A DNA stretch of 49,826 bases, filler included, from Dirinaria sp. TL-2023a (taxonomy: Eukaryota): NCBI GenBank assembly GCA_051941275.1. It is 2 parts of 2 records of this genome, joined end to end, with 100 filler letters (N's around TTAATTAATTAA, not from the genome) between each part and the next. Parts side by side here need not be neighbours in the genome. Positions count along the whole stretch, not along the records: positions 24,993 to 49,826 come from JAVEBF010000182.1; 1 more part is not named here. The stretch is one strand, 5' to 3'. The position numbers and the translations under genes are program-made. A model generated the notes under the pieces. That model worked only from the letters and a program-made list of their open reading frames with translations. It ran no database searches and was not told the origin of the DNA. This document shows, piece after piece, positions 20,073 to 38,009 of this stretch (positions are counted from its first letter, which is position 1; the number at the start of each line of letters is the position of its first letter).

Positions 20073-23000
20073 ATGATTGGGCTACGGCGGACCATAAAGG
20101 CTGCCTTTTACAATGCCCTTCAGCTGGCCATTATCAACCCCTTCCACACCTTCAAGAATGCGGCTCATATTGTTATTGCTTTGACTAAGAAGCGCCCCTT
20201 CGCTACCATCGCTTCTATTGCTATCGTCATGTATAGCCTCAAGAAAGCTAGAGAGCGCTACCGCCTCCGCTCCGGCCAGGTAAGAAAGGCACCTACAATG
20301 TCGCAGCAAACGAGTCACTTACAGGGTCTTTAGCATGGTGATCGCGGCGAAGGCAAAGGTGGGCCTGGAGGGGGCGATAACCCCGACGGACTTGACGATC
20401 CAGATTCTGGACCTCCTGGCCCGCGGCCCCCTGATCCGGAGCCCCCTCCTCGTCCAGGGCACCCTGAGGGTGCCTATACAATACCGGCTGCGCGCGATGA
20501 TGATTTCGACGCGCTGGAAACAGACGAAGAGAGAATGGACTGGTTTAGACGCGTAAGCAACCTATTCCTCCCCTTGATAATAATCGATATCATCTCAACC
20601 TTGCCTAGCACTGGCACCAAGTTTGTGATCTTATCCGAAGCGACGCGAGTGATCTCTCTGACTACGATACCAACGTTCTTGCCTTTATCGTAAGTCTACT
20701 GAGAAGTTGAAAGTATTGTGTAAAACTACTGACCCTCAGCGTAGAAGCGAATGGCAGCCAACGGAGATGCTAGCGTCCTTCAACGTGTTAGTCTACCGCA
20801 TCTATGCTTTCGTCTCTTACCGTATCTAACGCGCCATCCAGATCAGCGGTTCCTCCGCCGCAGATACCGTGATGGATCCGGATACCAACATTGCCGAGCA
20901 TGTGACTTCAGAGGACGAGACGCAGGACGAGACGCAGGACAAGGGCTTGAATTCCAATGCCACTGAGTGTGCGACCTCGGAAAACAACGCGTCTGACACG
21001 ATCGTTTCCACTACTCTTCCCGACTCTGACGAGAGCGGCGCTCTGGAGGAGACTGAGCTCGAGGAGTTACTTGGTTCCGGTAAGTGGAAGACTGGGACGA
21101 GGCTTCGAAGGATGCCAGCTAAGTTTTTGTAGTTGCCAAGGACATCAACAGTGCCGGAAAGTCTCGTATCAAACAGGATGGGTTTCGAACCCGTTATAGC
21201 GTGCACACCCCTACCCCGAAGAAGGAGCAAGGCAATCTGCTTCCTGAGCCCCTTAGGGTCCGTAGCCGCACGGAGACTTCACCTGAACATCGTGAACAAG
21301 AGATCTCCCTAATCGACTTCCTTAAGGCAGACGAGGAGTACGAGAAGTATGAGCAGGTGGAGCAAGCTACCGAAGGGGACAAAGACGCTCTCAAGTCCCG
21401 TCGGAAGAAGTCTCCCTTCTTCAATCTAAATCTCAAGCGCATGGCTTCTTCGGCGGTCGTTAAGGATTCCGCAGGATCCTCCAAGCAAGGTCCTGAAGAA
21501 ACCGCGCTGTCGCCGGTTGATCCACCCCTAACATCAATTGGCCCTTCTTCTGCTAAGCCTGTGATCCCGACTGTCAGTTGTGGCACTGGTTCGGATGGCC
21601 AGTCTCAAATCTTATCCCCGAGTACATCACTTCCTGCGCTGCAAGCCCCAGGCTCAGATGATAACGAACTTAAGTCTGTTCCGTACGGGGTGGGCTACAC
21701 TTTGGCCAACGCCGAAGATTCGAGCTCAGTTCCGCCGATACCACCGAAGAGTGTAAGGCGTAGGCCGCTACTTTCGCTCAACACTGAAAAGGCCACGAGT
21801 CCAGCTGACGGCACCGTTTCTAACTCTCCGGCTGTTCCTGGTGGTGGGGGTAGCGCGCCTTCTGCCGGCATCGGTGGGGGCTTCGACAATGCAGCTGTCA
21901 AAGCTCTAGCTACCACTGACGATAAAGGTTCCGGTCGTAAAAATAGGTCAAGGAGCGAAGGCAGCCCCCCTCCGAGCTTCTCGTCAACACCAAAGCCGAA
22001 GCAGGAACGCTTCACAGACGACCATCCCGAGGTCAAAGCTTTCGAGCGCAATTTCCTCCAAGAGACTTTTGGTGTGAGCAGCACCAAAGATATTCGCGAT
22101 CCCAATCAAGAGCTTACCTCTAAGGAACGTCGCGCCGAAAAGAAAGCCGAGAAGACGGCCGCGAAGCGCCTCGCTAAAGCTGCTGCCGCCGCCAACAAAG
22201 GACAAATTCACGACGACTCTGAGCATAAGATCGCCCACAAGCCTAAGAACGAGATTGAAAAAGCTTCTACCAAGTCCGAGAAGGATTCGCACAAAGACGA
22301 TATAGCTGACGCGTATTTCAAAGTTTTTCCTCTGGGCGACGACTACCCATTGAAGCATCTTTTCCCACCGAGCGTAATTGATTCCGCAAGCGGACGTAGC
22401 AATGCTCAGCCACCCACCGTTCCCAGCACACCCCAGCGACTTTCTAGTCACACGAGCAATACTGGTACGAGTACGACAATAAGCGCTCGTGGAAGTTCTT
22501 CTGTCGGCGGTGGAACTCAGGCCACCACTGTCGCAAGCACTCCTCAACGCGTCTCTCGCGACACAAGCAATTCGAAAACGGTCGGAACTCCATCTCTTGG
22601 AAGCATTTCGATCCGCCGTAAGGAGGTCAGCTCTGTCAACAATAAAGCTGATTCCTACCCTCATGGTACTCAAGTTTCGACCCGAAGCGGTTTCGGTGAG
22701 TCGAGCAAGGCCGCTGCAGGACCCGGCTATGCCATTGCGGGGCCTAGCACCTCCCAAATCGGCTCTGGGACTGATGTATGCCCAACTCCTACCCAAAAGG
22801 CTCTCGAGCAGGACAAGGGGTCTGGCACTCCTTATGCGCAGCTTCATCTTGAGGATAAAGCTGCCGAGAACCTCGCCGAGAAGCAATTGCAGAAGGAAAA
22901 TTTTGTGGCCCACAAGGTTTGTCCAAGTTTTGGAAAATACTCGAATACCTTCACTCATCGTGACAATAGGTTAATCAGCTACGCAAGATTACCGGTACGC

Positions 23001-23491
23001 AGATCGTCGGATACTCCAAGGAAGACGACATTTGCAAGCATCCCAATCACGACCGAACATTCTACGCCAAGAACCTGTTCTGCCACAGGTGCACCGACAA
23101 CTGTGCCGTCTGTGATGCTCCTTGCTGTATGTTCAAAGGGGCCCTTAACACAGCCCGAGCCAACCCTGAAACCGAGTTCGGGGAGGAGGCCGCCCACCTA
23201 GCTCGTGAAATCCATCAGTACGCCACCCAGGACAAGGATGTGGCTACGTTCCTCGAATGCACGGTATGCGAAAAGTGGGTCTGCCCGGAGTGCATCGGCA
23301 TATGCCCTATCTATCCTTGCCGGGACCAGATGTGTACAACATGCAACCCCAACCCGTGGGCCATGTGCGCTTTCCACGACGACGAAGACATTCAAATGTC
23401 TCCAATATGTCAAGCAAAGCTAGAAAAGAGCCGTCAAGACTTTCTGGACTGGCGCGAACTTCAGAACAAGAACAAGGACAAAGCTACGTGA
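20073..23491 (+). CDS. Uncharacterised ~1030 aa protein: N-terminal hydrophobic segment, long disordered S/T/P/K-rich middle, C-terminal Cys/His-rich (putative multi-zinc) domain
   Basis: Exons 20073-20279, 20334-20552, 20609-20689, 20745-20786, 20842-21079, 21133-22916, 22970-23491 splice in frame with GT-AG. The C-terminus reads CKHPNH...CHRCTDNCAVCDAPCC...CTVCEKWVCPECIGICPIYPCRDQMCTTCNPNPWAMCAFH. The true start could lie further upstream. Confidence 0.7.
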
Positions 23492-24892: not shown

Positions 24893-24992
24893 NNNNNNNN
24901 NNNNNNNNNNNNNNNNNNNNNNNNNNNNNNNNNNNNTTAATTAATTAANNNNNNNNNNNNNNNNNNNNNNNNNNNNNNNNNNNNNNNNNNNN
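24893..24992. other. Assembly gap / artificial contig spacer (44 N + TTAATTAATTAA + 44 N)
   Basis: Exactly 100 nt and symmetrical. The central 12-mer gives stop codons in all six frames. Confidence 0.95.
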
Positions 24993-27900
24993 TACACGGG
25001 GGTGAACGATGCCCTTTTTTTTTTTTTTATTGCCTTTGCGTAGGTGGGGGTCTTTGGGAGGTCTTTGTAGTTGAGATAGATGTACGTGTACTTAGTTGGT
25101 GGTTGGTGGTGGTAGAGGTTCGTGATATTTGCAGCTGGGGTGGCTGGCTAGACACTCATGAATGTTGATGGGCCTTTTGAAAGTGAGAAATGGGGCAATT
25201 GGGAAAGCCCATGCTCCGAATTCCAGATCGAATAAAGATTTTTAGAAGAGTAAATTTGGAGTGCAAGGTTTATATAGAAATTGATGTAGTAAATCTAAAG
25301 CCTTTGCTGGGTGCTGTTTATGACCTTGTGTTGTTGTTGTGAGTTCGGGGGACTTGAGGGGTGATTTTCTTGAAATGGAATGCATGACTTTCGTCCCGTT
25401 CCCTTGCTTAGCTTCTTGCTTCGGGTGAAAGGGGGCAGGGAAAGGGGGCGAGGTAGACAAAAGATACCAATTAGAAAACAGTCAGACGGGAAATGCAACG
25501 AGATGGATGAACGGTGAAGAAAAAGGAGGGAGAGAGAGATAAAAAAAAGCCCCGACATGCGAAATCCGAATATTGATTCGGGGGCTCTCCGTTGAGGCTT
25601 ATTTACTCTGCTGTCCGGTGAACGGTGTGGACGGAACACATGAAGTGGGCTGTAGGACTTGGAAGCGTCAGCCGAACGGAGAGAGAGGGAGAGAGAGGGA
25701 GCCTTAGCAAGCCTTAGATTAATCCTACAGTAAGACTTTCGGTGGAGAGGGCGAAGGTGACATGAGTGGCAGAGCAGTACTGTTGATGCTCTAGTGAAAA
25801 GTTTCCTCTCTGGTGTGAGATGGAGAATATTGTGCAGCCAAGGAAATGATTGCGCATAAGACTTTTAATAATGAGGCTCTTTTTTTTCCTCTCGGTTAGG
25901 CTTACCGTCCAGTAATAAAAACACCCGGGAAACACGTACATCATGATCATCATCCCTTATCCTTGTCGCGGCCGTTGGGCGATCACCGCCCGACTACTGC
26001 GCTTCCGCGTTCGGCACGCGACCGGTGTGCGCCTTTCTTGACTACATTGCATTACCTCTCAGTGATGCCACGACCTTCATTTTCACTCACCGCGCCCTGA
26101 AAAGAAGCCTTGACACCGCGAGCACGGAACTTGAGTGGCGAAGAGGGGGCCAAGGAGGGCGGAGGCTTTGAATTCTCTCGCCCCGCCGGGCTGATTCGAT
26201 TGTGGGGGGGGAACAATGGGTTGGGGGGAGTCAGTCGTACCCACCTGACTGGATATTGCAACGACGTGGAACAGGGGAAGATTAGGTGGGATGAGGGTGC
26301 GTGTATGTGTGTAAGGTAGTAGAAGAATGGATCTTTTTTTTTTTTTTTTCCCTTTTTCGCTCCCTTTGGTGTGATTTCATAGGAGCGCGTGTGGAGGTTT
26401 CTGATATCAGAACTGTTGAGGATGCGGGAAAGGATTAGGGAGGTCGTGCCAGCGAGAAACGCCGCGACGGAAGGCTTGACAGGTGAAGTGAGCGAGGTTA
26501 TTCTTGTGGCTGCCTGAAGCTGAAGTGATTTTGAGTTTCGACCCCAATGGAATGTCAAAATTCGGCGCTAATGGGTGTTGCCTCGTTGCCTTCTTCTACT
26601 ATGTGTCATTCTGCTTCCTCAGGTAAGGGAGAGAGCGCGAACCACCATGTCGCTCTAACGTGTGTGAAGCATCGCCCGAACTTGTTGAACTTTCCTCTCA
26701 AGGCACATTTGAGACAGGCTGCGGTTGGTGTCGCACCCATTATCCTGCTAGGCATTGATTGCTGTACCGCCATGTGAAGCACAAACTTCAAGTCGTACAC
26801 AATGGATTGTCGGAAAGCTTATTAAAGGTCCCGCTGCCTGCTCTATCTGTACATATAGCATGGAAAGGATCGATTGAGATTGCAACAGTTGGTTTCAGCG
26901 TTTCCTCATGAACGATAATAATCTTAAAATACAACGTCGCGGATCCCACCGGGAATGACATGCAGGAGGATGACGGATATTCAATGCCAAATGCAACGGT
27001 GACTTGTCACGGACTGAGTCACGCACTGGATCCGTGCAACCAAAGTAAGAGCAATGCATTTCAGCGAGAAATATAGCGCTAACTATCCCGTCCAAAGATG
27101 CCTGCGGTAGCGGTGCATAACCAAAACCATGCCGATGCGTGAAACGAGGGGGGAAAGGGGTTAGATAGTCAGAAAACGTCCCAACATGCAAGCCACAGCA
27201 AAAGACCGAATACCGAATCTCAAAAGCTCGAAGGAAAACAAGAAGCCGACTCTAAGTGATGCCATGGGTATCGATGAAGCAACGCCTCGAGAATGCTGGA
27301 AAATTACAATGCGTTTGGATCGCGGGGGTGGGTCGTCGAGTTGTCTGCAGCCCAGGCATATCCAGCGACGATCTAAAAGCGCCTAAGTCAGTGGCCGCCA
27401 TATAGACCGGTCATGGCCATTTACCATTGCCTTTGTCAACACAATGCTGGCGCTAGGTCTATTTCCTTGGCCGGGGAGGTCGTTCAGAATACCACTGTGT
27501 GCCCTTTTTATGGTGGCAAAAGACGCATGCAACGTCGAATTTATGGGTCATAGGGCCCTTCTGACAGTTGTAGCACCACCACTGTGTCTTAGGCGGCGGC
27601 GGACGTCCTCGGTTATCCATGATGGAACGCACGAAGTATTGACAGGGAAAGATAGATCGATGAGAGTGTGGATGTGTGAAGACGTGAGAATTGAACCAAA
27701 AGCAAAAGCTGGTTCTGATGGCGCTGAGTAGAAAAATGATCAGGAGGTTCGGTGATTGGCGAATGCTAACGAAGATCTCGAGGATGTCCTGTGTGTTGTG
27801 TTATGAGAGTGCGATGCCATTACTTATATTCATGACTGGCTGACTGGTTGGCTGGCTGGCTGTTGGAGCAACTGCTAGTTTTTCGGTGGAAGTAGAGGAC

Positions 27901-29104
27901 AGCTCAGTGTTTAGGATGCCGAGTAATATGGTTTGAAAGCATTGCCATTCGGATCCTTCGAGTGATACTCGAGATGGTATCGCAACGTGCCATTGTTCAG
28001 TTCAGCTCCGGAAGCGCGAACAGGAGTCAAAGAGGTGATGAGGACGGAGTAACCTTGCACTGCCAATCTCTCTCCGATGCGCAAGCTAGCACGTAGCAGT
28101 AGACTTCTAAGAAATTGCCTTAGGCTCCAATCATATTTCCTGACCGGTCAGGCAGATCAGATGACCGAAAGCTCATGCGGTGAGTAATGCACGAGTCTTG
28201 GTAGGGCAGCCTTCGGAGATGGGGTCCCAATCCCAGAGTGGTACTCCGGTGGCGAGTCTAACGTTCCCGCCGTCACCGGGGAGACCGCGCAGGCTTCTTA
28301 AGGTGGCAATGATCTGAAAGTGTTTGGAAACGTGGTATCTGAGGTAGGATTCTGAAGATTGAATTAGCGTCGGTTCCACGCAGCGTGTGCATTTGATGGG
28401 AAACCCAATCCTGAAAACTGGGACTTGATTGCCGACCGCCGTTGGTCAGTTTGCACAATGGTATCCACATCCGCAAGTATTGACACGTGCGTGTGATGTC
28501 GTTGCTCCCCTGATACGCAGTCTGACCGGCTCTGGAAAAGCTTTCCGATTGCCCTGCGTTGAAATATCGTGGGGACCAAGCCTCTTTCACGGGTGACTGC
28601 CTGCCCTTGGAATATTGGTAATTGTCAAGCCTCCGTAGACTCAGCCATGTCTTGAATGTCGAGGTATGATCCAGCTAGTTCAGTACCGAGAAAAGGCGTC
28701 GGATGGCGGTGCTCTCGAATGAGATTAATGAAGCATTAGCGCGTGTCTAAATTTCACGTCTCGGTCTCACCTATCTCTGACAATGCCGAATGAGGAGGAG
28801 AGTACTCGTACTGTAAGCAGGGCATGACCAATAATGAAACATTTCATGAGAGTAAGTACAGTAAGGTAGGAAAGACGCTGGGATTGCATTGAACTCAGGG
28901 TGTTGCCACCGAGGGTCCATGAGAAAGGACGCTAACGAAAAGGAACAACCGGTGCAGTGGGTCCATGCTTCCATCTCCGAGAATGCAAAAAGAAATCTAC
29001 GCAAATATTCAACGAATGTAACGCCTCCGCGCTGCCCAAAATCTGTCCGAGAATGCGCTGAGATCTTCGTATGCATGCATCTTCTCATTTTCCATGCTGT
29101 AGCC

Positions 29105-29335
29105 TTAGGCCACCCGGCACAATGAACATCTGGTGTGGTTGCAAACAACACACCTTGGCTGCATGGTGAGGCTCTTTGGTCCGTCGTGGCATTTGCAGCA
29201 GTACCAAGTACTAGACCTTGTGGCAGTACCGAGTGTATGGGAGAAGGGTGGCGGTCGAGCAGGTGCTACCTGTAGCTTGTGAGATGCAGCACCACCGGAT
29301 AGGTGTTCGTCGATGCTAGTTCCTATTAGCCCCAT
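29105..29335 (-). CDS. Small zinc-ribbon protein A (76 aa; WYCCKC-x12-CVVCNHTRCSLC)
   Basis: The C-terminal motif has the same Cys/His spacing as both fingers in the 35520-36002 ORF. ATG is in a good context (aaacATGG). Confidence 0.7.
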   Translation of the reverse strand: MGLIGTSIDEHLSGGAASHKLQVAPARPPPFSHTLGTATRSSTWYCCKCHDGPKSLTMQPRCVVCNHTRCSLCRVA

Positions 29336-30934
29336 GTTTTATAAAGCGAATAGGGTATGAAGACCTTCGACAAGGTACGGCGGAAGCACAGCAAGCTGTT
29401 GCTGCGAAGTTCGGGCTTGGGACTGGAGTTGCAATCGTGTTGCAAGGAAAACCATCGCCCTGTATAGGATGTTCCCCGTGCAGAAACATGGTCACCTTCT
29501 GTAGGGTTCTTGCTGCAGAGTTCAGGTATAGTAGCGCTCTTTGGAGAGGAGATTGGCAGAGTCTAGATGAGTTCAAGAAACAGCTCACTATTGATAAATC
29601 GAGACCTTGTGATCCTGACTTCGTGAGAAAAGGAAGAACGCGGTTGAACTTTCAAAAGTGCGTCTGTCGGTGCACTTATACGATTCATTGCAATGAATGC
29701 AGAGCGGCTGAGCTACGCAAACAAGACGAAGCGAAGAAGCTGGCGCCAGACGCAACATTGGACAAATGGAAGAGGGCGTGCCGTGATCCTGCCGTCAGTG
29801 ACAGAGGAAGAGCAGAGTGGTAGGACAGCGAGCAGCTGAAGCGCGGAATGCCTCTCCTGTGACTGGATTTCACATTTTCGCTTACTGCAGAATGCTGACC
29901 TTCTATTCCTGATAAGAGCTTCGGGCTGGAATCTATTACTTAATCAAATAGCTCACCAGGACCTTGCGAATACGCACATGGTCCACGTTTCGGAGATTGG
30001 TATGTTTTCTAAGGCGAACAAGTGCAAGCCGTGCTTCCCAAGGCTCAGCGACTTATTTCCAAGGGGCCGGCGAGGGAACTCTCGCTCACGAAGAGTGGCA
30101 AAAGCTAGTGGGCATAGTTGATGGAATTAGCCAAGGACTTTCTCAAGCGTGTCACATAGCTATCTGTTTTCCTCGCACGTCCTTTGAATGGTAGCACGGG
30201 AATCGTTCAATTGCCCTCGGGACATAGCCATCGTGATAGCCGTTGCAATGGTAATTACGGCTTGGTCAGCCTTCATTGACACTAGATCTGGATGGTGACT
30301 TACGTTGGGAGCCTTTCACTTGTAGATCTTCGTTTCCACTCTTAGCTATTGCAACGTCGCTAGACTACTGATGCCGACGGACTTTTGAGATCGTTGGTGG
30401 GCTGCTGTAGCTCTGAGCGTACCAAAGCTCGTATTGCAGAGAGCGCAGGTCTTCATCTTAGACCGTGAGCTCCACCTGGCTGAACGTGGGCCCGAATCCT
30501 GCCAAGATGGTGAAACGAGGCAACTAAGCGAAGAGCAGACCCAAGGTAAGTAGGTACAGTCATCATCACACTCACAGTCGGTGGCAAACCACATAATACT
30601 GACTTTCGGCTGTACTTCGTAAAATTCTTCGACAACAGTATGTGGAAAGTCATGTCATCCGGATTTGTCGGAGCTCACTGAGATGCGTAGCTACTTGCTA
30701 ATCACCTCAGCCGTTTACCGAGCGAAAAAAAATGTAATAAGGAAAAAGCTCCACAGCAACGCTAATTGTCGGTTGGCAGGGCTTATGAGCCTCTTGTCTC
30801 GCTATACTACGCAATTAAGGAATTGCTTAATAAAACGCATTCCAAAAGAAATTCTATATCACCACAATACAAAGCGAAAGACTAATTGTGACACATCAAG
30901 CCGACCCGCAGCTTGGAAGCCTCGACACCGGAAT

Positions 30935-31402
30935 TCAACGCCGTGAGACACCGCGATCTCTTACATAGATGACCTCTTGCTCACAATATTCACAGATCCT
31001 GTGATCGCAAGTAATACAAGAGTTGTAAATCTGGATATTGTGCGGCCCATGACCTCGGCCCGGACCATGACAGCAATACCAAAGAATCGTCCGAGTGCGT
31101 GCAGTGTGCTGGCGCTGGCTCTCTCCATTGCTGCTTTCAGAAGATGTATAATCGCTGGGCATACGGCGTTCTCTGATATTGGGTTGGGCACTCCAACCTG
31201 GTAAGATGTTGCCGGCTGCCAAAGACCCGGGTTGAGTCGAATACGTTGATGGAGCTTCAAGAGGTCGGGTGACCCTATCGTGCTCATGGACCGCTGGTCG
31301 TTCAAACGCACTGGCACGCTGGAGTTGGACTGCCTCGCTTGCTCTTCGACCTGAGCGGTCAGGGGCATACATGAGGTAGATTGGACTTTGGTTTCTCGTC
31401 AT
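30935..31402 (-). CDS. Small zinc-ribbon protein B (~155 aa; WYCCH...HGP...CITCDHRICEYC)
   Basis: Disordered N-terminus plus a variant finger. A CTGAC branch and CAG just upstream suggest a possible micro-exon (ATG TCT GAA, 31496-31488, donor GTGGGC). Confidence 0.7.
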   Translation of the reverse strand: MTRNQSPIYLMYAPDRSGRRASEAVQLQRASAFERPAVHEHDRVTRPLEAPSTYSTQPGSLAAGNILPGWSAQPNIRERRMPSDYTSSESSNGESQRQHTARTRTILWYCCHGPGRGHGPHNIQIYNSCITCDHRICEYCEQEVIYVRDRGVSRR

Positions 31403-32774
31403 GCCCTGCTGTTGCAGACGAGGGTCAGGCGAGAGACGCTAGCTAAGATCAGTATGGAACATAAAGTATTGGGAAACATATGCCCACTTCAGACATTCTC
31501 GACTGCGTAGCCCTTCGATTTTCGCGATTTTAAGACTAGTGGAACGCTGACGTACAATTCCAAGATTGTTATCGGACACAACAAAAGCAATTGTGGCCAT
31601 CTCCATTTTGGCGTGGCAACGAGCAGACATAAATAAGGAGACGTAGGGAAATATTAGGTGGACACTACAATTTACCCTAGTGGCATAGTTCAATAAGAGG
31701 GAAAACAGGGGAGACAAAGCCACACCTTCAATGCCACCAGATCTAAGTTCGAGTTGGCTCAAAGATTGAGCCATGCATGCTTGCTAAGTCGAACTGGGAG
31801 AGGAGTGCCGGAGATCAAGAGCGCCGGATTTGAAGGGCACAGGATGCTCGTAACACGCTTTGTTGAGGTTGGCAGCATATTTGGGGGGGGGGGGGACGAT
31901 TGAGGCAGTACACAGGACTTAAGCGTATCTGGTAAGTCGCTCCGTGCTTTTTCACAGCTCATAAGAATGTCCTTATCAGCAGTACTATGTCACGTCCTGT
32001 GTACTTGCCTTATCGAATTCAGAACATCCATAGAATTTGCTTACCAGTCAATATTATGTAGATTAGAAGAAATGCAAACACGGCCAAAGGCTGGAAACAA
32101 GCGACCGCTCCGCGATCACTGTCGTCAGGTCTGACTCAGGTATATCTCTGCTGACCATGCTCAGGCAGGCATGTCAGAGCGTCTAGGTGAGCAGATTGGC
32201 CATAGAGGTGCTTGGCAGTTGACTTGCTTCTACCGCCTTACGCTTGCTAGTAGTAGTATTTCAGCGCCGTTGTAGGCATCGTACCTGTCTGTACGATCGC
32301 ATCATCTTAAGAGTCATAGCTCAAGCGGACAATGAGCATAAACTGTATTCCCGATACTATCATTGGCTGTCGACGTCTCGTGGTGAAGGCGAAGCTTGCC
32401 TCCTAAGCCAGGTGAGAGTAGCTCTAGCCATGTCAGGATGGTGTGGCATATGGAACAGGGGGTGAAGTGAAAGCAATTAATAGTACACTCGATTCAACCG
32501 AGGACCGAGTTTAAGGTGCGTGCGCCGAGTAGCCTGTATAATGGTAAGCAGCATGACAGTCGCCTTAAGGTAACGAACGCCTTAGAACGCCTTCTGTGGC
32601 TATAACCATGAGTTCGCGCCACAGCTGGCGCAGACTAGTCTGCTGCAAGGAGAGAATACCAGACATACTGAAGCCATTGGTTCGGTATCCGTAGAGCTGC
32701 ATCCAGCCGTTAACAGGGTTGTCGTTGATAGATGCAGAACTGGTCAACAACCAACTCGCGATCTGATGTCGATA

Positions 32775-32784
32775 GTCACGTGAC
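32775..32784. promoter_or_regulatory. GTCACGTGAC palindrome (E-box, Cbf1-type bHLH site) upstream of PFA5
   Basis: Perfect 10-bp palindrome ~245 nt upstream of the ATG at 33028. Confidence 0.4.
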
Positions 32785-33027
32785 GCTCTCTCGGTCCCAA
32801 TGTTCCTTATCTCCGGCGAGAAGAATCTAGCGCTGCCTCATTGTCAGCGAAGGCTTCTGATGGTTGTCCCTCGTCCTCTCGAGGTTCGTTCAGCTTGAAG
32901 ACGCTACGAACGGCGTTATGGAGGCAGCATACTGCGTGCATAGGTGCTTCGAAAGCTAACCTCCATCATGCGAAGCATATTCTTCTCCGTCGACTTCCCT
33001 CTTGTGCCTTGAGCTTTTGCTACCTGA

Positions 33028-34937
33028 ATGGCCCCGACTGCCTTCGATCCGAAGGCGGTAAATATCTGGACGGCGAGGGTTATCCCAGTCATACTTATAG
33101 GGATTGTCGGTTATGTTACGTGGGTGGTGATTGTCCTCGTATGCGGTCAGCAGAGAAGATGCAGCGGCTCGTATCAGATTGGCTAACGCTACTGCAGCTG
33201 ACTACCTGCTGGAAGCCCACGGTACGAGCAACGTCCGGCGTCCCAGCACTGGTATAGCGATCATAGTCGTATATTCTTTTCTGCTACTACTACTTGCGTT
33301 CTCCTACTTGCGTCTACTCTACACTGTCACCTCCAATCCAGGGTTTGTCCCTCGGGGCCCTCAATGGCATGCCAATCAGACACCAAAGCAAAGATCGCAC
33401 AGTCGGAATACGAGAAATATGGCAGGGCTAGAGCTGGAAAAGACGAACGGTCCTCATACGCCAGCTACTGGCTCTGATGGATACGCACTTGCAGCTGGTC
33501 CGCCTACCTCTGAGGCTGATGTTGGCCAAGAAACTTCAAATCTCGACAAGATGTATACCAAAGAAGTTTTCAGCTGCGAAGGTGATGGACGCCCTATATG
33601 GTGCTCGACCTGCTTGAATTTCAAGCCAGATCGAGCTCACCATTGCCGAGAAGTTGGCCGATGCGTTCGGAAAATGGACCATTTCTGCCCTTGGTAAGTA
33701 ATAGGTCCTTGAATTTCTAGACTCTCTCGTCCTTGCCCAAGCCAGCTTCAAGCCAAACAAACTGGGAGAGAGCTGACATTACGCCAGGGTGGGAGGGGTC
33801 ATCTCGGAAACTTCGTTCAAATTTTTCCTTCAATTCACCACCTGGGCTTCTTTCTATTGCATATTCAACCTCATTGTAATGGCCATTTTTGTCGCAGAGT
33901 TGAAGAGGCAGGTAAGGCGCACCTTTTTAAGTACTTCCTTTTCGCGATTCTCGCAAGGCTACAGTGGTGCCACGCGTCGAACTGGTTCTTGCTGTTTCAG
34001 GTACATTGGTTCCAGCATGCCATCAAGCTTCAAGGATGTATTGTTGCCTGAAAGAGCTTATTTGGACGTCGATGTGCTGCCGGTGCCTCGACGGAATAGG
34101 AGGATTCGCTATTACTTGCGTTTAGCGCCCTATCACTTGAAGCTTATTCCAGCCTCAATCAATTGCAAGGCTGACCAGCCAATCTTCTAGACCAACACGA
34201 TGAACATTCACTGGGTAATCACCCTAGCCTTGTAAGCTGGATCCCTCCGATCAGCTCAGCATGAACTGACTTACTGCAGTGGAGGGCTCTTTGGTCTGTT
34301 CACGCTCGGCATGAGCTTTTCTTCGATGCAGTTCGTCCTACTCAACACCACGACTATCGAGAACCTCAGCCGGCATTCGAAAGTCTGGACTCTTGCGGTC
34401 TTGATTCCCAAAAATTCGTTACACTCAATACCTCCTCCGTTCCACACAATCACCTATCCTCTCGGATACGTAGGCCCCAACCAAGACGAGGCGCGCCCTG
34501 AGATACCTGTAGTGCAGCTAAGAAAATTTGCAATCCTGCACAGCAAGCCAGGCGAAAACCCTTGGGATCTCGGACCCTTCCGAAATTTCAAATCAGTCAT
34601 GGGCGACCGGTGGTATGATTGGTTTCTGCCGATCAGGTATTCCCCCTGCACCCACCATGACAGATACGAAGCACAGTTCGAGACCGGGCCCGTCGTGCAG
34701 CGGATGAGAGAGGATGCTGGCCTTGCGGCTGGACTCGCACCGTTCAATGGGTCCCTAGATGGCGATGGAAAGCCCGAGAGGAAGCGCAGAAGACGGAAGA
34801 GGCAACGTACCCAAGATGACGCTCGTGAGGACTCTGACAGGAGGCGCAGAAAGAGGAGACATAGTCATAACGTGCATAGCGATGGTGGAAACGGTACAGA
34901 GCTTTCAGAGTATGGAGAGCACGGCGTCGTAGTATAA
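33028..34937 (+). CDS. PFA5: DHHC palmitoyltransferase, Pfa5-type, ~478 aa
   Basis: Exons 33028-33145, 33198-33693, 33788-33911, 34191-34231, 34280-34937. [38 protein letters not shown] (DHFC variant typical of Pfa5), NTTTIE, NPWDLG..NFKSVMG..W..WFLP. Confidence 0.9.
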
Positions 34938-35519
34938 GCTACTTTGGTCTTTGATTTCTGTTCGTACATCTTAGAGCGTACATGGCAAAGCGAAGGTTCA
35001 AGTGTCGCGGGATAAAGAACTGGGGTCATTGTACATCTAGACCCAACGGATACCTTGATGGCGAAGACTTTTTGCCAGCGATCATAGTCAATAGAAGCGT
35101 CCATTGCTTACTCGCAGTGGGGACTCAAATGGTTGCGCGCCAATTCATCCTAGGATATTGACTAGAAATGAGAAGCTAAATGATGAAATCTAAGATATGC
35201 AACGAATTTAAAAGCCAAAAGTATCACAATCTTGCCTCAGCCCAAATGCATCCCTCCAACAAAGCAGCAAATACATGAGCGAATGCAAAGAAGAAGAAGA
35301 TCAAGAAGAAGAGAAAAAAAAAAATACAAAGAATGTGAAAACGACTTACATTGATCGCAGGAAAAACCGCGCTGATGAGGGGGCATGCAAAAATTGTCAA
35401 TTTCACCGAAAACCGTCCTCTCCGACCATAGATAAACCCTTGACAGACCCTAAGTCCCAGTCATCCCATGTAGCCTTCGTCTCCTCTCCCTCCTCTGCTT
35501 CATTCATTTCTCTCACAGA

Positions 35520-36002
35520 TCAAGCACGTCTACACCGATCGCACTTGACATGTCCGCACTGCGTACATCTCCCTGCAGACAAATCCGGATTATTGAGATG
35601 ATTGCATTCGCTGCAGTACCACCATCCAGCCATGGAAGGCTTATGAGACGTCGTGCCAGCAGGGAGCTGATATCGAGGAGCGCGCTGAAGAGAGAGAGCC
35701 GGCGGCACGGATGGCGCGAAGGATGGATGAGATTGATAATGGGGAGTAGGAGAGAATGAGTGGCTAGAAGGATGAGATGGCGTGGTAGGTTGTCGGGAGC
35801 GAGAGGACGATGGGTGCGCCTGGCGAAAAGAAGAGGTGGAGGGATACCGAGCATGGCTCGATCGAAAAGGGGCAGGGTTGTTTACGCGGGGTGGGCCGGT
35901 GGTGCATTTGTAGCAGCGCGAGTGCTCGCAGATAGGACATTTCTCAGGTGCAGTGGCGATCAGGTTGTTTGCCCGACAGGAGCAGCAGGTCCAGACGTCC
36001 AT
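35520..36002 (-). CDS. Small double zinc-ribbon protein C (160 aa; N- and C-terminal fingers joined by an S/P/H/R-rich linker)
   Basis: WTCCSC-x12-CPICEHSRCYKC and WYCSEC-x12-CTQCGHVKCDRC. TATAAAAA on the minus strand near 36162-36169. Confidence 0.8.
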   Translation of the reverse strand: MDVWTCCSCRANNLIATAPEKCPICEHSRCYKCTTGPPRVNNPAPFRSSHARYPSTSSFRQAHPSSSRSRQPTTPSHPSSHSFSPTPHYQSHPSFAPSVPPALSLQRAPRYQLPAGTTSHKPSMAGWWYCSECNHLNNPDLSAGRCTQCGHVKCDRCRRA

Positions 36003-38009
36003 CTTGTATGTATGGAAATGCGTTAGGATATTGAAAATGGATGAGAAGCAGCAATTGCTAAAGTGGATGAATTGAAGCTGTCAAGGTAACCTTTGAGCTA
36101 TGTCTGAGATATAGTGTTCCACGCTCTTGGATGAAGAAGACGCTGAATGGATTTTGAATGGGTTTTTATATCAGAAGAGGTGGCTTGGTGCTTCCAAAGT
36201 GAAGCTTAATCCAGTGCCATGTGGAAAGCGCAAAGATGCTTAGCTGTGCTTTGAACCGGTGTGGGCGGTCAAGAAAATGAGATGGGGCATGAGTAGGAGT
36301 TGCCAAATAAGATAGAGACAGCATAGCAATGACGGATTTCACATGTCAGTCGATTGCTCCACTTTCTGGGATGGGTCAGAGGCTTGTCTCCGTTTTTTGT
36401 TGATAATGATAAACCGGACCTTTCGTAGAGCAGGACTGCTCCGGGATCCCAGCGAAGGCGAGAAGCCCGACGAATTGTACCAGTCATTGGTATGACGCAA
36501 TCCCAGAATAGAGGAAAGAGAGGTAGCGTAGAGGCTGTGAGTCTCTGGAACGAAGCCCCCGAAGCCCCATCACAGAGTGGACTGGCGTCTGGAGATTCGA
36601 GTGTTCGGTCAGTCGTCTTTCCCTGAGACAGAAGTGCTTGACAGGAAGTAACTTAGCGTATGGGATAGCCATAGTCCATGAGCTCGTTCAGACTTGGCTA
36701 ACACAGCCGAACAAAAGAGATCTTCGTCGCCTTACGAACGGAAAACAGAATGAGAGGCCGCAAACCGGGTTTTCAAAGCTGGGATACAATTCGGTAACGG
36801 CCGTGCTTTTGAGGCCAGAATTTGGAGCAAATGGATTGCTCCGACTTGTTCTCGCCCGATATCGTATACTATCAGGTAAGGCGTAAAGGATTCCGTCTTT
36901 TTCCGTGGGTATAGGTAACATCACCGCCATTAAGAGGGAATGACGCAAAGTCAAAGGGGCTGTGCGGTCAATAAACGGTCAAACCGACTACCAACCGGAT
37001 GTGAGAGTCTGTAGAGACTCGAATATCAATTATTGCAAGAGCCCAATCCATTGCTGGGCCCGTGATTTAGTGAGGTAGCAGAGGGTGCGCCCTTGAATGC
37101 TACATTATGGTGAATACTTCGCATACGACCATTTGGCGCGTGCGGCCGTAAAATGGACACTAAGTAGTACCATGACTGTTCCTGGAGTATCAAACAGCGA
37201 TTTGCCCTTTGTATCATATCACTCTTGATCAACTTATCTGCGCTCATTGGTGCTCTGATACCCTCGTTCTGTGTGCCATGTGCTGAGTCAAGACATTGCC
37301 AGGCGACCCGCCTCCTTCCCCGCAAAGCTTCACGCCCTTTTGGCTTTGAGGCTGGTTCTATCACCGCCATTTGGGGACCTCGAGGGGTATGATTTTCGGC
37401 GCTTCTGTATTGGTACGATGTGCAGGTCGAGGTTGTGAACGGCAACGTTTCGCGCTCGCAATCTGGCACGGGATAGCCGCTGTGGTCTACCGAAGAAGGA
37501 CTCGTGTCCGATGCGTCATGGCATAGAGGCGTCGTATAGGTCGGTCGAGAAGTGCAATACTGGTGTATCGAGGTGAATGGGGAGGGCATGCTGTCACATC
37601 AGGAAGCGGGCTTTGAGGATGTTTTTGCCTCTATGACTGTCTGGTATTAGATATGTATGATACCTCAACAGATGCTACATGGGCGGACGAAGAAGGTTTA
37701 GCCTGAACTGCCAGCATCTCCTTATCGTACATGTACCTCGAAGTACACGGGGCTCCTTTCTTACCTATACCTGTTGAAACGGTGGACACTGGTATTGACT
37801 CATCCATGAGAATGCCAGAAAGGTCCATAGGATTGTGAATGCTCGTGAGGTGAAATTGGATGCATTTACTGATCAACGACTTCTAACAGCCGCCTGATCG
37901 ATCTATCTATCTAAATACAAAGTGCAACTGCTGGGGCAGCGCGATAACTACATACTGCCGAAAGGAAAGACAAAAAGCACCGCAAACACGCAGAACACGC
38001 AAAACTCCG

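Follow-up and report, generated by a model that had tools for sequence, protein, structure and literature searches.

What holds a series of very small zinc-finger genes together around the gene of a palmitoyltransferase? The question is raised by a stretch of 49,826 nucleotides of Dirinaria sp. TL-2023a (assembly GCA_051941275.1), here called the window, for which a preliminary description had reported three short minus-strand genes with an extended zinc-ribbon motif, straddling PFA5. The layout proved to be conserved in other fungi: a lead gene with a finger of the N-N-P type (finger types are named after a variable loop) lies tail-to-tail with PFA5, and two or three co-oriented paralogs follow past the 5' end of PFA5. 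The explanation which we favour, and to which we give about an even chance, is that binuclear zinc-ribbon micro-regulators which bind proteins are encoded by an ancient array, in which PFA5 is embedded as a co-inherited neighbour.

The finger gene array and its linkage to PFA5

A six-frame scan found the pattern W-x-C-x2-C-x12-C-x2-C-x-H-x2-C-x2-C three times in the window and a looser fourth finger, all on the minus strand (Table 1). In 100 triplet shuffles the mean number of matches was 0.0 for the full and the loose finger pattern and 0.03 for the tail alone. Thus, four fingers in three minus-strand open reading frames (ORFs) are indeed found where they had been described. A fifth co-oriented finger gene, of 53 aa, was overlooked at that time; it lies outside the coordinates then given and its finger is without the tail.

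These array genes are real, conserved ORFs. The lead gene has a full-length ortholog, P0001, at 67% identity (28/33 and 28/38 in the fingers versus 55/89 in the linker), and so has the 155-aa gene with P0091 at 69% identity (33/37 in the finger region versus 74/103 in the rest); both records list the same longest contig of 24,487 bases. The orthologs show in-frame indels, and the fingers are the better conserved parts. The finger of the ~111-aa gene is 57–61% identical to the C-terminal fingers of P0003, P0051 and P0086, and that of the 53-aa gene is closest to the ribbon-only N-terminal fingers of P0043 and P0026. Among themselves the window paralogs are alike in the finger alone (32–37% over 30–56 aa), and no DNA similarity with E < 0.1 was found between them. 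This agrees with the earlier suggestion of an old paralogy with selection on the fingers.

The gene enclosed by the array, in opposite orientation to the finger genes, is PFA5 as judged by its sequence. Its product has a DHHC domain (Pfam, E 1.3e-11), one relative reaches 93% identity, the best matches are named Pfa5 proteins, and the best named relatives come from Letharia and Xanthoria. Its introns (33146-33197, 33694-33787, one from 33912, and 34232-34279) have GT..AG ends, and spliced RNA contigs were present in all three runs. All RNA evidence given here consists of contigs from these three runs of one sample, labelled lichen metagenome (share of words 0.06-0.07); their strand is not shown, and they indicate presence, not absence. 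Judging from this label and the named Pfa5 relatives, the genome is probably that of a lichen-forming Lecanoromycete.

A single pattern scan for N-P type fingers yielded 31 metagenomic loci, which formed 22 groups after merging of near-duplicates; L035 and L052 are 99.5% identical. Sixteen groups were informative, 15 of them with at least 1.9 kb of downstream sequence plus one shorter positive. PFA5 is located tail-to-tail with the lead finger gene in six of these 16 distinct loci (L035, L039, L041, L043, L044 and L051), at a distance of 0.7–1.7 kb compared to 0.6 kb in the window; the chance of such an adjacency is about 1.4e-4 per locus. Beyond the 5' end of PFA5 all four long positive loci have two or three further finger genes, co-oriented with the lead gene, whereas no additional finger lies beyond 1 kb downstream in any of the seven long PFA5-negative loci (Fisher p 0.003). 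No other gene of the window had a match in the 31 loci. The distances covered are large: Pfa5 identity between different loci is mostly 29–58%, L041 is nearest to Chaetothyriales and L035 to Letharia, and L044 and L051 are distant from every named protein and might, at a guess, belong to Leotiomycetes or Sordariomycetes. Independent of the pattern scan, the locus tags of Thermoascus crustaceus place a finger protein of the G-P type (VTN00DRAFT_1219) two tags away from PFA5 (VTN00DRAFT_1217). Four more pairs of finger and PFA5 records come from contigs of equal size (83,855; 6,183; 12,348 and 15,968), which is an indirect indication. Furthermore, the finger tree pairs some of the downstream genes by position across genomes (support 99/96 and 87/92).

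According to the accessible text of PMC3219968, gene order is usually shuffled between classes of filamentous ascomycetes, and even the quinate cluster survives only shuffled. In Dothideomycetes only two blocks of at least five genes persist in most of 18 genomes, and such blocks are read as selected in the accessible part of PMC3516569. Like the flanks of MAT, the quinate cluster and the Dothideomycete blocks 1 and 2 in these sources, the array is a short block kept over long distances. Unlike them it consists of microprotein paralogs in constant orientation around one enzyme gene, in at least two classes. Because gene order rarely survives between fungal classes, the block points to a constraint.

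Table 1. Genes and fingers of the array, and the enclosed PFA5 gene, in the window
Feature	Position	Strand	Basis and remarks
Lead gene, 160 aa, two fingers and Ser/Pro-rich disordered linker	35520..36002	-	ORF and finger scan; tail-to-tail with PFA5
Lead gene, finger of N-L loop type	35904-35993	-	finger scan
Lead gene, finger of N-N-P loop type	35532-35621	-	finger scan
PFA5, DHHC palmitoyltransferase, spliced	33028..34937	+	DHHC match, spliced RNA contigs, named pfa5 relatives
155-aa gene, one variant finger at 30983-31081	30935..31402	-	ORF and finger scan; ortholog P0091
~111-aa gene (probable), one G-P-K type finger at 29117-29206; exons 29489-29365 and 29315-29105	29105..29489	-	scan, intron, RNA joint (weak)
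53-aa gene, ribbon-only four-Cys finger at 27510-27581	27459..27620	-	ORF and finger scan

One gene model had to be changed. For the gene at 29105 a 76-aa ORF had been described; its finger and strand are correct, but its start probably is not. The ATG of this ORF (29335) falls inside a 49-nt intron, GT...GCTAAT...AG with a branch site, at 29364-29316, and therefore the gene probably begins at the ATG at 29489. In an RNA contig of a close relative 29317 is joined to 29370; this joint is weak (one contig, with a depth of 2.7 in run X2 and 23 letters on its short side). A hidden N-terminal finger exon of this gene was found neither by tblastn nor with a hidden Markov model down to 7 bits. RNA-library contigs cover part of this gene and, in all three runs, 27321-27943, without a joint there. 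They do not cover 35493-36039 or 30570-31116. TATA-like words occur in three of four upstream regions.

Some further features were observed around the array. At 30346-30450 (minus strand) there is a C2H2-like fragment, C-x2-C-x3-F-x8-H, after which come stops and, near 30300-30260, a stretch resembling an intron; the fragment is probably a pseudogene remnant within the array. At 25120-25815 contigs from all three RNA runs, with joints, mark a stretch that has no obvious conserved ORF and may be a non-coding RNA or a long 5' UTR downstream of the array. On the other side RNA-library contigs at 36442-37628 lie over an ORF of 187 aa (37026-37589, no Pfam match), which is found upstream of the lead gene in the same orientation. 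The N gap at 24893-24992 with TTAATTAATTAA filler joins contigs C181 and C182, and adjacency across it rests on scaffolding. Beyond this gap, at 21123-23491 (plus strand), a long low-complexity ORF precedes a probable last exon (22970-23491), which is rich in Cys and matches the B-box only below threshold. In four other loci the lead finger gene has a divergent upstream neighbour of ~720 aa, charged and of low complexity (L041 12821-14983, L027 1165-3270, L029 5661-7979, L033 1390-3588). It has a conserved C-terminal domain without Pfam match, and its relatives in the Dirinaria genome are on other contigs. In two related loci DNA polymerase eta is found upstream of the lead finger gene (L051 13711-15486, L046 1757-3541).

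Finger architecture and proposed metal sites

For the lead gene product the AlphaFold2 confidence (pLDDT) is 90-98 in the finger blocks and 52-67 in the linker. The fold neighbours of the predicted models are RanBP2/NZF ribbons and rubredoxin-like domains, all at weak scores, and the top ten VIA rows are all of the RanBP2/NZF type (Z 3.4-4.1, likewise weak). The top fold rows include MDM2-RPL11, Nup153/Nup358-Ran and TAB2-ubiquitin (Z 3.8-4.1, root-mean-square deviation 2.3-2.9, 30-35 residues aligned), and many of the RanBP2-type fingers in the top rows are protein-bound. The predicted ribbon core, at these weak scores, agrees with the resemblance of the first half of the finger to RanBP2/NZF that had been proposed from the bare sequence. 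Trp two residues before Cys1 is found in 5/5 window and 183/213 family fingers. The four ribbon Cys are present in four of the five window fingers; the finger at 30983-31081 is missing the second one, which is probably replaced by His.

Directly after Cys1, a Cys or His is found in 182 of the 199 tailed fingers versus one of 19 tail-less ones, which mostly have Gly there; these sequences are related, so that a p-value for the covariation is overstated. A looser first count gave 207/227 versus 16/45, the latter including variant tails. The proposed second metal site at the extra H-x2-C-x2-C thereby becomes probable. From the sequences we infer that site 1 consists of Cys1 to Cys4 and site 2 of Cys1+1, His, Cys5 and Cys6, with two zinc ions per finger. 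The preliminary description had also considered palmitoylation of the CC motifs. This is disfavoured because the second Cys covaries with the tail and is swapped for His, and this Cys is probably a ligand of the second site and not a palmitoylation site.

The family and its nearest known relatives

A profile search with the five fingers gave 395 clusters at 50% identity (E<=0.001). From these 151 proteins were gathered, and 149 were examined after two long repeat-like ones had been dropped. Two fingers are present in 130 of them, one in 15 and three in four, in a ranking and scoring that favours two. Certain pairings recur: N-L with N-N-P (22), G-P with G-P-K (19), and ribbon-only with G-P-K (14). 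In 115/148 at most 8 residues separate the end of the last finger from the C-terminus, and the linkers are rich in Ser, Pro and Thr with 1.5% Cys. Named members, from Aspergillus, Penicillium, Paecilomyces, Thermoascus and Blastomyces, are called 'hypothetical', 'uncharacterized' or 'RanBP2-type domain-containing'. Among 63 of the 151 proteins scanned none reached a zinc-ribbon Pfam cut-off, and the sole match above cut-off was MADF in one dropped outlier. In the ESM Atlas the best match scored 0.94, to Ascomycota clusters without a common Pfam family, and 22 of 30 Atlas matches were without one. The family is large and, within the databases searched, restricted to ascomycetes.

An origin in prokaryotes or viruses was considered and rejected: 29 matches in 596 billion bases and seven in viral contigs were mostly repeats or stop-containing frames, and two or three of them may be unrelated Cys-rich domains. 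The full spacing of the finger also occurs in an open frame of an archaeon (Candidatus Nitrosotenuis, L077 301-390), where more Cys follow; this ORF is probably an unrelated multi-Cys domain.

In the Dirinaria genome the finger-tail pattern has 22 matches versus three for the control, of which 13–15 look like members by eye. A second cluster, C1206 (L058 1319-7804), has four single-finger genes within 8 kb and no PFA5 match; it surrounds a gene which by eye resembles a glutamine amidotransferase. A two-finger gene on C1283 (L059 5515-5809) has an intron between W-Y-C and the next Cys, and such intron-split members escape ORF-based searches. C177 holds a probable broken member. That the genes are kept as a genomic cluster, as first suggested, thus applies around PFA5, but members also occur genome-wide and in a cluster without it.

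The next of kin are RanBP2/NZF fingers (PF00641; MDM2, Nup153, Nup358, TAB2, ZRANB2), which share with the family the W-x-C-x2-C ... C-x2-C core, the two-hairpin ribbon predicted at weak fold scores, the frequent position at protein termini and, in two subtypes, Asn four residues after Cys2. In the accessible text of PMC7154859 and bioRxiv 2025.06.19.660640 the signature of these fingers is given as W-x-C-x(2,4)-C-x3-N-x6-C-x2-C. The family spacing is x3-(N/P)-x8, with 12 residues instead of 10 between Cys2 and Cys3 and Asn in 2/5 window and 70/213 family fingers; the canonical x6 signature has one match in 149 proteins. The family differs further by the extra Cys/His with the H-x2-C-x2-C tail and by being encoded as free-standing microproteins in an array. 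Ubiquitin-binding NZF fingers have a Thr-Phe/Tyr motif after Cys2 according to the part of PMC11372445 available; this TF motif occurs in 0/5 window and 1/213 family fingers, which speaks against the ubiquitin binding of NZF type that had been envisaged. The three ORFs described earlier have no Pfam match, PF00641 included, at E<=1. PF00641 matches one of 63 homologs (19.7 bits versus a cut-off of 27) and, at E<=0.01, three of 39 single fingers (best 0.00019). Because these spacing and score tests failed, the family is not filed in PF00641 or NZF, although its predicted fold looks RanBP2-like.

The nearest named eukaryotic ESM Atlas cluster is PF26652 (Zn_ribbon_double, a probable double zinc ribbon), with 0.80 for the whole protein and 0.78 for the finger, Atlas feature scores which are leads only. 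It is likewise from Ascomycota, and its name implies two metal sites. The family may overlap with PF26652, itself of unknown function by name; neither its accession nor its name was mentioned in the literature searched. In FYVE domains four Cys pairs form a cross-brace, the first three with the spacing C-x2-C-x12-C-x2-C-x4-C-x2-C, which is identical in the fingers described here. The FYVE Pfam model matches one of 39 fingers (E 0.00088). A FYVE cross-brace was rejected since there are three pairs plus His and no fourth pair, and no FYVE row appears in the fold lists. Tail-less members keep Cys1-4, which therefore indicates ribbon pairing and not a cross-brace. The best sequence match in the PDB is the rubredoxin-like domain of rubrerythrin (E 6.5e-6), accompanied by sub-threshold RUBY_RBDX matches.

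Possible roles of the array and of PFA5 within it

Under the explanation we favour, the family would comprise small intracellular ascomycete proteins in which a disordered linker carries, at its ends, one or two fingers of 30 residues. A full finger would be a RanBP2/NZF-type ribbon, with Cys1-Cys4 as one site and the residue after Cys1 plus the H-x2-C-x2-C tail as the other. The fingers would bind proteins, the variable loop (N-L, N-N-P, G-P-K or G-P-M) setting the partner. Members with two fingers could serve as flexible bivalent adaptors and those with a single finger as competitors; we infer that they are micro-regulators. Tandem duplication, earlier than the split of the fungal classes, may have given rise to the array. 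PFA5 would have been kept linked through shared regulatory DNA, a shared chromatin domain or few tolerated breakpoints, and would not be an obligate biochemical partner. In L027, L029 and L033 the linkage to PFA5 is lost while the ~720-aa neighbour, also found in L041, stays, and this fits an embedded neighbour.

The clustering with PFA5 given in the preliminary description recurs with the same layout in distant fungi, but it is absent in 10 of the 16 loci, which argues against an obligate link.

Several points weigh against the favoured reading. The loci were chosen by the N-P subtype pattern and share common ancestry, so they are not independent events. The finger tree was built from 43 columns, with 19 of 40 forks unresolved. 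Shared upstream motifs are at chance level (6-, 7- and 8-mers, p 0.14, 0.54 and 1.0), and no similarity in non-coding DNA was found between the window and other PFA5 loci. The fold matches are weak (best Foldseek E 0.15 with TM 0.61, Z at most 4.1), and a shared fold demonstrates no function. Finally, the C-terminal finger in the window has Ser at the eighth ligand position, as have 13 of 199 tailed fingers; its ortholog has His.

The finger proteins could instead be partners of Pfa5, as accessory subunits, substrate adaptors or substrates, and the cluster a selected palmitoylation module. Erf4 is such an accessory subunit, of Erf2, and subunits of the Erf4/GCP16 type form a stable complex with the DHHC enzyme; the Pfam scan of the window proteins gave no match of this kind. 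That PFA5 is the only window neighbour refound in the 31 loci, with order and orientation kept at a Pfa5 identity of 29–55%, would suit such a module, as would the rarity of the Dothideomycete blocks read as selected (PMC3516569, accessible part). We nevertheless consider it unlikely, given the loci without PFA5, the second four-gene cluster and scattered members without PFA5 nearby, the metal-ligand-like behaviour of the CC Cys, which exchanges with His and vanishes with the tail, and the second, unrelated conserved neighbour of the lead gene. The more specific idea that array and Pfa5 form one functional module, with the fingers inhibiting the acyltransferase or serving it as exchangeable specificity subunits, we take to be about as unlikely; if true, filamentous fungi would switch the substrate range of Pfa5 by turning on different array members.

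It is equally improbable, in our judgement, that the fingers are single-stranded RNA-binding modules as in ZRANB2 or FUS, with two-finger members reading bipartite sites and regulating mRNA fate. The base-contacting motif of ZRANB2-type fingers is an aromatic-Ala-Arg loop, which a crude pattern found in 0/213 fingers; the canonical spacing is nearly absent and the loops differ strongly between subtypes. This has to be set against RNA-binding RanBP2 fingers (FUS, RBM5, ZRANB2) among the fold rows, within 1-1.5 Z of the best, and against the two fingers used by ZRANB2 and OZ1 (PMC7154859, accessible text). Metal buffers or redox sensors, metallothionein- or rubredoxin-like and expanded for metal stress, with iron as a possible metal, would account for seven Cys and one His in 30 residues and for the rubrerythrin and RUBY_RBDX matches. 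Such a role seems doubtful, however, since the Cys occur only within a folded domain that has a conserved Trp and loops specific to the subtype, the long linkers are poor in Cys, and chelation would need no fixed pairing of N- and C-terminal fingers. Least of all do we expect a neutral linkage, that is an old tandem array in a slowly rearranging region with a birth-and-death family of little function. Downstream subtypes do vary by lineage, one member is probably broken and the linkage is often lost, but the full-length orthologs, whose indels are in frame and whose fingers are better conserved, argue against it, as does the constant order and orientation where the quinate cluster is kept only shuffled (PMC3219968, accessible text).

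In the literature searched we found no description of the family or of the cluster; subscription journals, bioRxiv supplements and the supplementary block tables of PMC3516569, which may list the locus, were outside its scope. Six member accessions were not mentioned there, the only match for pfa5 with synteny was a plasmid name, and no study of Pfa5 in a filamentous fungus was present. The conserved finger-PFA5 cluster is therefore apparently unreported. The family is nearly invisible to annotation because of its tiny ORFs, introns in or near the finger and lack of a Pfam cut-off match. RanBP2-type ribbons in which the second metal site is detachable would represent a new variant among such fingers, and the order and orientation kept across lichen-forming, black-yeast and Eurotiales lineages point to a constraint worth finding. 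The Thermoascus tags and the Aspergillus niger members make the array directly testable and offer a handle on Pfa5. Summarizing, these results suggest an overlooked, long-conserved regulatory gene cluster.

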